Assembly: GCA_951406725.2 (NCBI GenBank)
Contig: OX597817.1
Location: forward strand, 115,630,001-115,694,000
Direction: 5' to 3'
Source: Octopus vulgaris
Taxonomy: Eukaryota
DNA length: 64,000 nucleotides
Position 1 is the stretch's first letter, and the number at the start of each line of letters is the position of its first letter. Of this stretch, positions 10,185-49,547 are shown in pieces. The position numbers and the translations under genes are program-made. The notes beneath the pieces are model-generated. The model made no database searches, was not told where the DNA came from, and saw only the letters and a list, made by a program, of their open reading frames with translations.

Positions 10185-10956
10185 TAGTTGGTATTTTATG
10201 ATGTCTTAAAGTGAAAATATTCAGTTATAGATGCAGTAGATAATTATTTTTTAGACTATCGCAAAGCCACATATTTTTGCTTTGTGTTGAAACAGTCGAG
10301 CTAACTCAAGTTGAATTCATTCTATGGCTTATATATGTAAGAAATGTACTTGGTTGGCAAGCAGATTTAAATTTGCTCTATCAATGTGCATAACTAAGTA
10401 GCGCAATGTATTAGTACTCTATTACAACCCTCGTCCAATTTGATATTTGAAAGTTCTATAATGATTAGCTGTTTAAAATTAAGTGACTATATCTCTCTCG
10501 AAACCCCTTTTTTCTGCAGTATTTCTCTGTAAAACGTTTGTAAAATATATTACTGTGTATAGCCTAACTTGATATATAATTGCTGTCCTGGTCATACAAA
10601 AAAATATATATATATAATCGAAAACAAATGCTCAAGCAATTACATAATCAAATACACATTCCTTTGCCACTTTCTTCATTTCATTCATTGGTTAGCAGCC
10701 ATCCTGTGGAACTGCCTTGAAATATTTAGTCAAAGAAATTTGGTACTTATTTTCTCTGTCGCTTTTACTGAACTGCCAAGTTACGGAAACATAAATAAGC
10801 AAACGTTGGTTGTCAAGATATGGACATTTACAAATACTGGGACACTTAAAAACGCATACGCGCATGAACAGAACACTCATATTTTACTCGTATTGATTGG
10901 CGTGTGTGATTTTAACACATCTACATGATGTGAAAGAAGTCAACTACCAAAATTCC

Positions 10957-11782
10957 TGTTGTATCGACGCCCCCAGACGACGAAGTAGGCTAGCCCAATA
11001 CGTAGATATAGAGGGAGAAGACTACACGTCGTGGAAGAGTAGCAGTCGGAGGTAGAGAGTAGTAATAGAGCAGAGTTGAGTAGTTGAGGCATCCGAACGT
11101 GCAACATAACAGTGGCAACGAGGATTCGTAGCTGACGCAGCCACTGTGTAGTATTACGATATAACAGTGGTGACGAGGATTTCGTATCTCACACAGACAC
11201 TGTGTAGTATTGCGATATAACAGTGGTGACGAGGATTCCGTATCTCACACAGCCACTGTGTAGTATTGCGATATAACAGTGGTGACGAGGATTTCGTATC
11301 TCACACAGCCAATGTGCAGTATTGCGATATTACAGTGGTGTCGAGGATTCCGTATCTCACGCAGCCACTGTGTAGTATTGCGATATAACAGTGGTGACGA
11401 GGATTTCATTTCTCACACAGCCACTGTGTAGTATTGCGATATAACAGTGGTGACGAGGATTTCGTATCTCACACAGCCACTGTGTAGTATTGCGATATAA
11501 CAGTGGTGACGAGGATTTCGTATCTCACACAGCCAATGTGCAGTATGGCGATATAACAGTGGTGACGAGGATTTCGTATCTCACACAGCCAAGGTGCAGT
11601 ATTGCGGTATAACAGTGGTGACGAGGATTTCGTATCTCACACAGCCACTGTGTAGTATTGCGATATAACAGTGGTGACGAGGATTTCGTATCTCACACAG
11701 CCACAGTGTAGTATTGCGATATAACAGTGGTGACGAGGATTTCGTATCTCACACAGCCACTGTGTAGTATTGCGATATAACA
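10957..11782 (+). mobile_element. Solo-LTR-like element with an internally amplified PBS/LTR-end array
   Basis: Starts TGTTGTATCG (10957) and ends CGATATAACA (11782), a 9/10 inverted repeat with TG...CA ends. Flanks are attcc (10952-10956) and gttcc (11783-11787), a 4/5 TSD match. A 155-bp unique head ends ...CATAACA and is followed by G-TGGCAACGAGGAT, a PBS-like motif. No coding sequence. Confidence 0.7.
11112..11782 (+). repeat. Tandem array of 12 units of 56 bp (first unit 55 bp)
   Basis: Consensus gtggtgacgaggatttcgtatctcacacagccactgtgtagtattgcgatataaca. Units start at 11112, 11167, 11223, 11279, 11335, 11391, 11447, 11503, 11559, 11615, 11671 and 11727. Confidence 0.97.
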
Positions 11783-12589
11783 GTTCCAATGAATATTAGA
11801 GAAAATATTCATTTGCAGAAGTAAGGTACAGTTAAGTAGTAAAAGAAAAATAAACATTACGTTCCAAGTAACTAATCACGTTTAAGGAGATCTCATATTT
11901 TAGAATTAGTTGAAACAACATTCAATGAAACGTATCTCAGGATTTTAGTCATTTATGATTGCTACATGTAATGTCCAGTGATGCATAGTAATAAACTATT
12001 TGTTTTCGTGATGAGAATCGTGAATATCACTGCAAGTAAATTAAATTATACAGAATTGATGATTGTGTGGATAACGTCCTAGGTTAAATCTACAGTCGTC
12101 GGTATGATATTCAATTTCCTGGCTGCGTTTTATTATATTTCAAATTCTGCGTAGAAGATATTCCTGAAATATTAATTATTAGATCAACTGCAACCTTCCG
12201 TCATCTTATTTGTAGCTCCACAAATTCATTAGGTCTGTCTAGGTTAACATTCATTCAACTAGCCGACTTGTGCCCCACACCTCGCGCACAAAACTCAGTT
12301 TCGTGATTGAATGATATGTGAAGCATAATACAGACAGAACTTCACTGCAAACTTAACTATTTTCTGAAATATGCCCTGTTAGATATAACGTTTTATATGT
12401 TATGACTTGATATTAGTGCCAATGATATACAGTTAGTAAATCAGCCAAAAATATATACGTTACTTTGCTCTTGACCACGTGACAAAAATAGACGTTTGTG
12501 TTGCAACTCGAAAATCGTGCAACTAGGAGTAACGTTGCAACCTCACATTGCATTGTATTTCTTCTGTTCACAAGATACAGTGTTTGTGC

Positions 12590-48955: not shown

Positions 48956-49547
48956 AGGCGGTGAGCTGGCGGAATCGTTAGCACGCCGGGCGAAATGCTT
49001 AGCGGTATTTCGTCTGCCGCTACGTTCTGAGTTCAAATTCCGCCAAGATCGACTTTGCCTTTCATCTTTTCGGGGTCGATAAATTAAGTACCAGTTACGC
49101 ACTGGGGTGGATATAATCGACTTAATCCGTTTGTCTGTCCTCGTTTGTCCTCTCTGTGTTTATCCCCTTATGGGTAGTAAAGAAATAGGTAATTCGTCTG
49201 CCGTTACGTTGTGTGTTCAAATTCCGCCGATGTCGACTTTGCCTTTCATCCTTTCGGGGTCGATTAAATAAGTACCAATTACGCACTGGGGTCGATATAA
49301 TCGACTTAATCCGTTTGTCTGTCCTTGTTTGTCCTCTCTGTGCTTAAACCCTTGTGGGTAGTAAAGAAATAGGTAATTCGGTAGTCGTTTGCCGCTACGT
49401 TCTGAGTTCAAATTCCACCAAGGTCGACTTGGCCTTTCATCCTTTCGGGTCGATAAATTGAGTACCAGTGAAACACTGTGGTCGATGTAATCGACTACTC
49501 CCATCCGTGCCAAATATCAGACCTTGTGCCCTTAGTAAAAAGATTAT
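48956..49547 (+). mobile_element. SINE family A, trimeric copy
   Basis: Head aggcggtgagctggcggaatcgttagcacg. The segment cgtctgccgctacgttctgagttcaaattccgcc...tttgcctttcatcctttcggggtcgat...agtaccag is repeated three times, at about 49011, 49195 and 49386. Confidence 0.92.

Follow-up and report, generated by a model that had tools for sequence, protein, structure and literature searches.

How could a tRNA primer-binding site (PBS) and the end of an LTR, joined in one short module, come to be repeated 12 times inside a single insertion? This question is raised by a locus in a 64,000-nt stretch of the Octopus vulgaris genome (contig OX597817.1, positions 115,630,001 to 115,694,000; hereafter the window), in which an LTR-like head and a row of such modules lie between target-site duplications (TSDs). 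The initial annotation of this locus had offered three answers: an LTR that extends itself, a minimal TRIM-like tandem element, and minisatellite expansion after insertion. Our preferred answer, held at a probability of about 0.5, is that the window element consists of an LTR and leader modules of a tRNA-Ser-primed Gypsy element, likely a by-product of reverse transcription that was inserted without the rest of that element, and that the modules were likely amplified from about 2 units to 12.

Layout of the window element

The 155-bp head, the 12 units with PBS and att end, and the 4/5 TSD were borne out by their coordinates (Table 1) and by TRF, which gave a period of 56, 12.1 copies, 93% matches and a score of 1183 for the array. 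Each unit is made up of a G, a 13-nt PBS with 1-2 changes, about 30 nt, and the final 12 nt of the LTR; a short inverted repeat lies in the spacer (unit 1). The claim that every unit carries a PBS and an att end held for the layout in all 12 units, but not for the exact letters. The exact 13-nt tRNA complement was found in 0/12 window units, with one change in unit 1, a common C>T in units 2-12 and a second PBS change in unit 5, and the att end is altered in units 4 and 9. As for the flanks, the chance rate of a TSD match is 2.6% for at least 4/5 and 0.4% for 5/5.

Table 1. Features of the window element, in window positions.
Feature	Position	Strand	Remarks
Left target-site duplication, attcc	10952..10956	+	4/5 match to right TSD
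LTR head, short-LTR subfamily of the Gypsy family, TG start at 10957	10957..11111, 155 bp	+	Relatives 80-86% identical; solos with 5-bp TSD; identical LTR type at both ends of gag-pol copies
Unit 1: PBS for tRNA-Ser(GCT), ~30-nt spacer, 12-nt copy of the LTR att end	11112..11166, 55 bp	+	
Units 2-12, 11 x 56 bp	11167..11782	+	End of last unit is the right terminus of the insertion
Right target-site duplication, gttcc	11783..11787	+	

In the LTR of the window, the first ~75 nt and the U5 end are conserved and an AG-rich tract, which we infer to be R, is hypervariable. Both at window 11030-11090 and in LTRs of the family, this AG-rich middle varies strongly in length and order between copies and is usually alike in both LTRs of one copy, a pattern that suggests reshuffling at the first strand transfer. 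The window insertion reaches 671 bp beyond the LTR end; a canonical solo LTR ends exactly at the 3'-LTR-type end. A Pfam search of ten window ORFs gave no match. RNA folding predicted a local hairpin over att and PBS, with whole-sequence z-scores of only -1.4.

The left and/or right junction of the element was covered by single-copy contigs in 4/4 other runs (labelled as 4 organisms); because these contigs carry the junctions, the element is not an artefact of this assembly. The copy number of 12 is as read in this assembly, the other contigs being built from short reads and none of them spanning the array. No empty site was seen among the contigs of the 4 runs, which by their nature cannot show absence, and the unit-9 bin was nearly uncovered in one run. 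Elsewhere in the window, a 26-bp insertion relative to the window was found at 12196 in 3/4 other runs, and a 184-bp tandem duplication lies inside a SINE-like repeat at 49004-49496, with a copy in opposite orientation at 158-387, close to the start of the window.

The parent family and the place of the unit

The head had been taken for an LTR, and it was indeed found to belong to a dispersed family (1363 first-look candidates, 40 scored), which occurs as solos with 5-bp TSDs and also flanks gag-pol copies. The 29 other head loci returned comprised 19 plain solos (mostly with a 5-bp TSD), 9 copies of LTR plus one unit, and 1 mini-element. The gag-pol copies are ~4-5 kb long; 82 gag-start matches were obtained, together with 67 PPT matches, a few of which belong to other families. 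Complete copies (e.g. L265, L269 and L271, with 5/5 TSD) have TG...CA LTRs at both ends, a PBS after the 5' LTR, a PPT before the 3' LTR and a short TSD. In L269, a natural copy with ORF stretches, Pfam recognized RVT_1, RT_RNaseH, Integrase_H2C2 and rve in that order; this succession of reverse transcriptase, RNase H and integrase is that of Gypsy elements, the assignment made from the window alone. Related proteins are K02A2.6-like and flatworm or nematode gag-pol, at 47-67% identity.

The PBS is complementary to the 3' end of host tRNA-Ser(GCT), as had been stated in the initial annotation, and 18-nt and 50-nt copies of this tRNA were found at family loci. When host genes ending in ATCTCATCCTCGTCG were searched with a 23-nt pattern at no more than 1 mismatch, 49 tRNA-Ser(GCT) matches were recovered compared with 0 in the control, and ARAGORN called Ser(gct) in 11/11 loci scanned. 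This pattern replaced an 11-nt tRNA-gene search that was non-specific (961 matches versus 597 in the control; an ARAGORN tRNA in 0/31 loci). Two clusters of gene matches were noted, with ~20 at G000:C3:70854305-70896771 and ~7 at C7:103873503-103889736. The parent is a decayed Ty3/Gypsy family primed by host tRNA-Ser(GCT). It is divided into a subfamily with long LTRs (~216 bp) and a less diverged one with short LTRs and units; the long-LTR heads checked for a joined unit had none, and no LTR and unit were found joined across subfamilies.

The parent layout reads LTR - (PBS-spacer-att)n - PBS - gag-pol - PPT - LTR, with a shorter final PBS between the units and gag. One to three units lie upstream of at least 36 of the 82 gag starts (one unit in 27, two in 8, three in 1), a count made from 78 parsed starts and 4 from earlier matches that includes some zero-unit rows of unclear context. 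One further gag copy has ~54 units ahead of gag. By comparison, units were present in 0/51 PPT-preceded 3' LTRs with a readable end (57 found; 42/51 of the short type), and TSD-matched copies bearing 5' units terminate in a plain LTR. The comparison of unit number in 5' and 3' LTRs that the initial annotation had proposed therefore gave units on the 5' side only, against self-extension. The unit thus belongs to the leader that separates the 5' LTR from gag, outside the LTR itself, and recombination between lengthened LTRs cannot be the source of solos made of LTR plus unit.

Such solos are common. A sample was taken by U5 motif from the first 79 of 255 listed places; after 9 already examined had been left out, the remaining 70 were called by script as 45 plain solos, 20 unit-bearing solos, three 3' LTRs and two 5' LTRs; hand inspection of ten doubtful rows moved 3 from plain to unit-bearing and 1 to inverted dimer. 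Units were borne by 20/65 solos compared with 0/42 short-type 3' LTRs (Fisher p=2e-5), and solo LTRs ending in a unit make up about a third.

Traces of reverse transcription and the origin of the insertion

At dozens of loci, an insertion terminates in a unit end that is flanked by a TSD. Among these loci are 7 elements that lack an LTR start and have an inverted unit end as their left terminus, with TSDs matching at 5, 5, 5, 4, 4, 4 and 3 of 5 positions; L233, which sits in CA-rich sequence, is the weaker case. The number 7 is a lower bound because the junction searches missed L064, L073 and L320. Six of these inverted elements measure 78-414 bp, and the seventh, whose array has grown, measures 1.2 kb. 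Most of them join at an 8-nt inverted repeat common to the att-PBS junction and the middle of the unit, an arrangement to be expected from the annealing of two tRNA-primed minus DNAs through their 3' ends. Unit ends, whose use as att ends had been proposed from the window, did act as integrase ends. At three unlinked loci (L184, L199 and L276), a SINE-like repeat was found inserted at or just behind the att end of a unit.

Copies of the primer itself are also preserved. In L319, LTR and unit give way to a tRNA copy of exactly 18 nt, behind which stands the bare 3' part of an LTR of another subtype. L320 lies in a 5/5 TSD and has no LTR. Its inverted unit is succeeded by a unit whose PBS is of the tRNA type, then by an exact 18-nt tRNA copy and by ~75 nt of captured, unrelated sequence with an A-run, and it closes with an att end. 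Distal units carry tRNA-type PBSs in L073 and L065, those in units 2 and 4 of L073 possibly being one event that was duplicated. A stop of plus-strand synthesis at 18 nt is described as the signature of m1A58 in the part of PMC13191261 consulted. A further arrangement, L072, has an LTR, an 18-nt tRNA copy, an inverted unit and 3-4 forward units inside a 5/5 TSD.

Other loci record joins between molecules. Where gag is joined to the bare 3' part of an LTR, the LTR halves are often unlike within one TSD (L240, L251, L262, L319). PPT-bearing copies mostly have like LTRs, with tracts that differ by indels in L260, L266, L269 and L271. In L359 (G000:C1:223508400-223509500), two LTR+PBS pieces stand head to head through an 18-nt tRNA-type PBS copy, with the same 5-mer at both flanks by eye; this locus looks like two fused plus strong-stop DNAs. 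Three independent TRIM-like mini-elements (L019:1501-2045, L302 and L128), all with 5/5 TSD, contain 50 nt of tRNA-Ser(GCT) read through to the anticodon stem (46-48/50 nt matching), joined to the 3' internal region at ~10-nt microhomology, and the variable arms of the three tRNA copies match different host tRNA genes. Finally, in L223, L224, L233, L240, L244, L251, L262, L274, L286 and L077, the sequence behind the final PBS continues for 30-160 nt and then passes into the AG-rich tract or U5 of an LTR, without PPT or U3; these fusions likely arose when minus strong-stop DNA jumped wrongly onto the gag start.

We propose that tRNAs would prime at the first PBS of the leader and at a later PBS too. 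Priming at the first PBS would give the normal long minus strand, and hence a unit-free 3' LTR. Priming at a later PBS would give a short minus DNA that covers just the unit: the RNA upstream of the first PBS would already have been copied and degraded, so that synthesis would stop there. Plus strong-stop DNA (U3-R-U5-PBS) would then anneal to this short minus DNA instead of the long minus strand, and upon extension of both, a duplex of LTR plus unit with two proper att ends would be integrated as a born solo. Additional jumps could bring the number of units to two or three, or lead back to the long strand. Once at least 2 units stood in the chromosome, slippage or unequal exchange would turn them into a minisatellite.

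Direct traces of priming at a unit end amount to about ten rare loci, none of them the window copy, and the tRNA could have been joined to the unit end by first-PBS priming and an early hop instead. When loci were pooled from differently targeted searches, without ten tRNA-type-pattern loci and 37 unclassified rows, the LTR end matched the unit end perfectly over 12 nt in 20/40 unit-bearing solos compared with 4/47 plain solos (p=3e-5) and 3/22 unit-bearing 5' LTRs (p=0.006), and in 11/43 3' LTRs. This enrichment, which dual priming alone does not predict, favours a route using the identity, by template switch or later deletion; sub-lineage structure (partial linkage of LTR and unit type) could contribute to it. 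The terminal base was LTR-type in 9/20 mismatched solos versus 5/19 5' leaders (p=0.32), L068 and L188 have the LTR-type base in the last unit only, and a tRNA-type first PBS was weakly enriched in solos (7/40 versus 1/22, p=0.24). A mixture of dual priming, end capture and later deletion is plausible.

The 12-nt enrichment (20/40 versus 4/47 and 3/22) is predicted if the unit end was captured during reverse transcription by a template switch onto the minus-strand end via the common 12 nt, with the internal region looped out, no second priming, and later growth of the array. End capture also predicts the LTR-type last bases in L068 and L188 and the unit-free 3' LTRs. Alone, however, it leaves unexplained the elements that begin with an inverted unit end in place of an LTR start, as well as the 18-nt tRNA copies behind unit ends, and the unit-type last base is kept in 11/20 mismatched solos; we consider it possible but doubtful. 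The same enrichment is predicted by deletion after insertion, whereby repair through the 12-nt microhomology that links the unit end to the terminus of the 3' LTR would remove the internal region and the 3' LTR and leave the TSD intact, and many family copies do have internal deletions. Here the 12-nt match must compete with 110-170 nt of LTR-LTR identity, yet yield about a third of the solos, and TSD-flanked inverted elements or unlike LTR halves cannot be made in this way; we regard such deletion as an unlikely source of the window element.

The self-extending LTR of the initial annotation, in which distal priming would copy units into both LTRs and solos would arise via later LTR-LTR recombination, accords with how common TSD-flanked solos of LTR plus unit are. 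It is rejected by the absence of units from 3' LTRs (0/51, p=2e-5, compared with 20/65 solos), copies with 5' units also ending in a plain LTR, and we hold it to be very improbable. The other mobile alternative, a TRIM-like tandem mini-element that copies itself with many units, could point to multi-unit arrays at many loci, with up to 106 units in one 5/5 TSD. The repeat, however, contains neither the body of an LTR nor a PPT, no second LTR is present, and each long array has fixed variants of its own, which leaves this proposal scarcely credible.

Probable growth of the arrays, known systems and consequences

The number of units at insertion and their later growth can be judged from unit divergence. 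Single units at different loci differ pairwise by 0.106 (41 units). Units inside 2-3-unit copies are mostly 0.07-0.18 apart, with a few rows inflated by misregistered units; since they differ about like units of separate loci, they were likely present at insertion. Compared with these, arrays of 7, 8, 9, 12, 21, ~54 and 106 units show pairwise differences of 0.018-0.088, each with its own widely common variants, and among the long arrays examined there is no case of one being a dispersed duplicate of a second. Arrays of 7-106 units look like later minisatellite growth. The largest, L063 (G000:C3:44313387-44319453), has an LTR and ~106 units (6 kb) in a perfect 5-bp TSD, its units being ~2% apart with interspersed recurring variants. 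In the window array, the pairwise difference is 0.054 compared with 0.106 for single units across loci; two variants are present in 11/11 of units 2-12 and absent from unit 1, and three more occur in 2-3 units. Units 2-12 have the marks of a minisatellite, namely locus-specific variants and less divergence than single units of other loci. From these variants, the window insertion likely consisted of the LTR and about 2 units, with unit 2 amplified in place later to 12 in total. The minisatellite expansion suggested initially is in keeping with the growth to 12 units, but not with the origin of the unit, which is a leader module of the parent. None of these results suggests a function for the 12-copy array, which probably arose as a by-product without selective effect; the role of its RNA as a tRNA or tRF decoy, suggested initially, would be hypothetical.

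Engineered retroviral vectors with two tandem PBSs, reportedly studied by Voronin and Pathak in 2004, are said to initiate twice on one RNA, as scored by deletion between the PBSs. These vectors are the nearest precedent for the proposed dual initiation. They are artificial, whereas the octopus module occurs naturally and has an att end of its own, which allows the second product to be integrated. Drosophila Gypsy, as described in the part of PMC1635307 consulted, is alike in being a natural element with two sites for one primer tRNA and unlike in having its second PBS at the 3' end. The short LTRs, tRNA-Ser/Leu PBS and 5-bp TSD of the Mag lineage are matched by the octopus family, although these traits are not exclusive to Mag. 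Among Mag-lineage elements, cqgypsy_24/25/66 of Culex have short LTRs, a tRNA-Ser or -Leu PBS, mostly 5-bp TSDs and a length of 4-5 kb (PMC3286476, sections consulted). According to the same sections, the 5' UTR contains tandem repeats in three Culex families (PMC3286476); for these repeats no PBS, att end or role as terminus is described there, whereas the octopus units have PBS and att and act as termini. Another Culex element, cqgypsy_1 of the Osvaldo lineage, is alike in carrying, behind its 5' LTR, an insert derived from a tRNA, together with a 26-nt duplication of LTR sequence. It is unlike in being a single odd element with whole tRNA copies, for which the sections consulted describe no LTR+module solos, inverted products or arrays (PMC3286476).

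Tandemly arrayed TRIMs and Cassandra arrays resemble the octopus arrays as TSD-bounded tandem arrays from LTR elements; according to the portions of the two sources used, tandem TRIMs alternate whole LTRs with internal domains, whereas the octopus repeat is a PBS, a spacer and only 12 nt of LTR, without PPT (PMC4717578, PMC6934838). In Helenus and Ajax, tRNA- or 5S-like promoters are described inside LTRs (PMC10886601, in part). Solo LTRs formed by LTR-LTR recombination have one LTR in a TSD, at least in the portion of PMC6934838 used, and about two thirds of the octopus solos look so. About a third end at least 55-56 nt past the LTR, where no 3' LTR reaches, and plain LTR-LTR recombination therefore cannot give them. 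In the literature searched, which excluded Repbase, subscription journals and supplements, no description was found of tandem PBS+att modules, nor of a PBS+att module acting as a terminus.

Taken jointly, the loci give roughly even odds to the following picture. A natural Gypsy family would routinely prime twice per RNA, and a large share of its apparent solos would never have been full-length; tiny palindromic DNAs without LTR or PPT, with both strands tRNA-primed, would also have been integrated, and such inserts would be the seeds of dispersed minisatellites reaching 6 kb. The solo-to-full-length ratio is widely taken as a measure of DNA loss by recombination; if about a third of the solos of this family were born solo, as may be the case, that measure would be biased. 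Intermediates of reverse transcription that are otherwise observed only in vitro as a rule are preserved in the octopus genome as fossils marked by TSDs: tRNA copies of 18 and 50 nt, strong-stop DNAs from different molecules linked to each other, and pairs of tRNA-primed strands joined tail to tail. The genome further illustrates a concrete way in which a cis-element of a retrotransposon gives rise to dispersed minisatellites.
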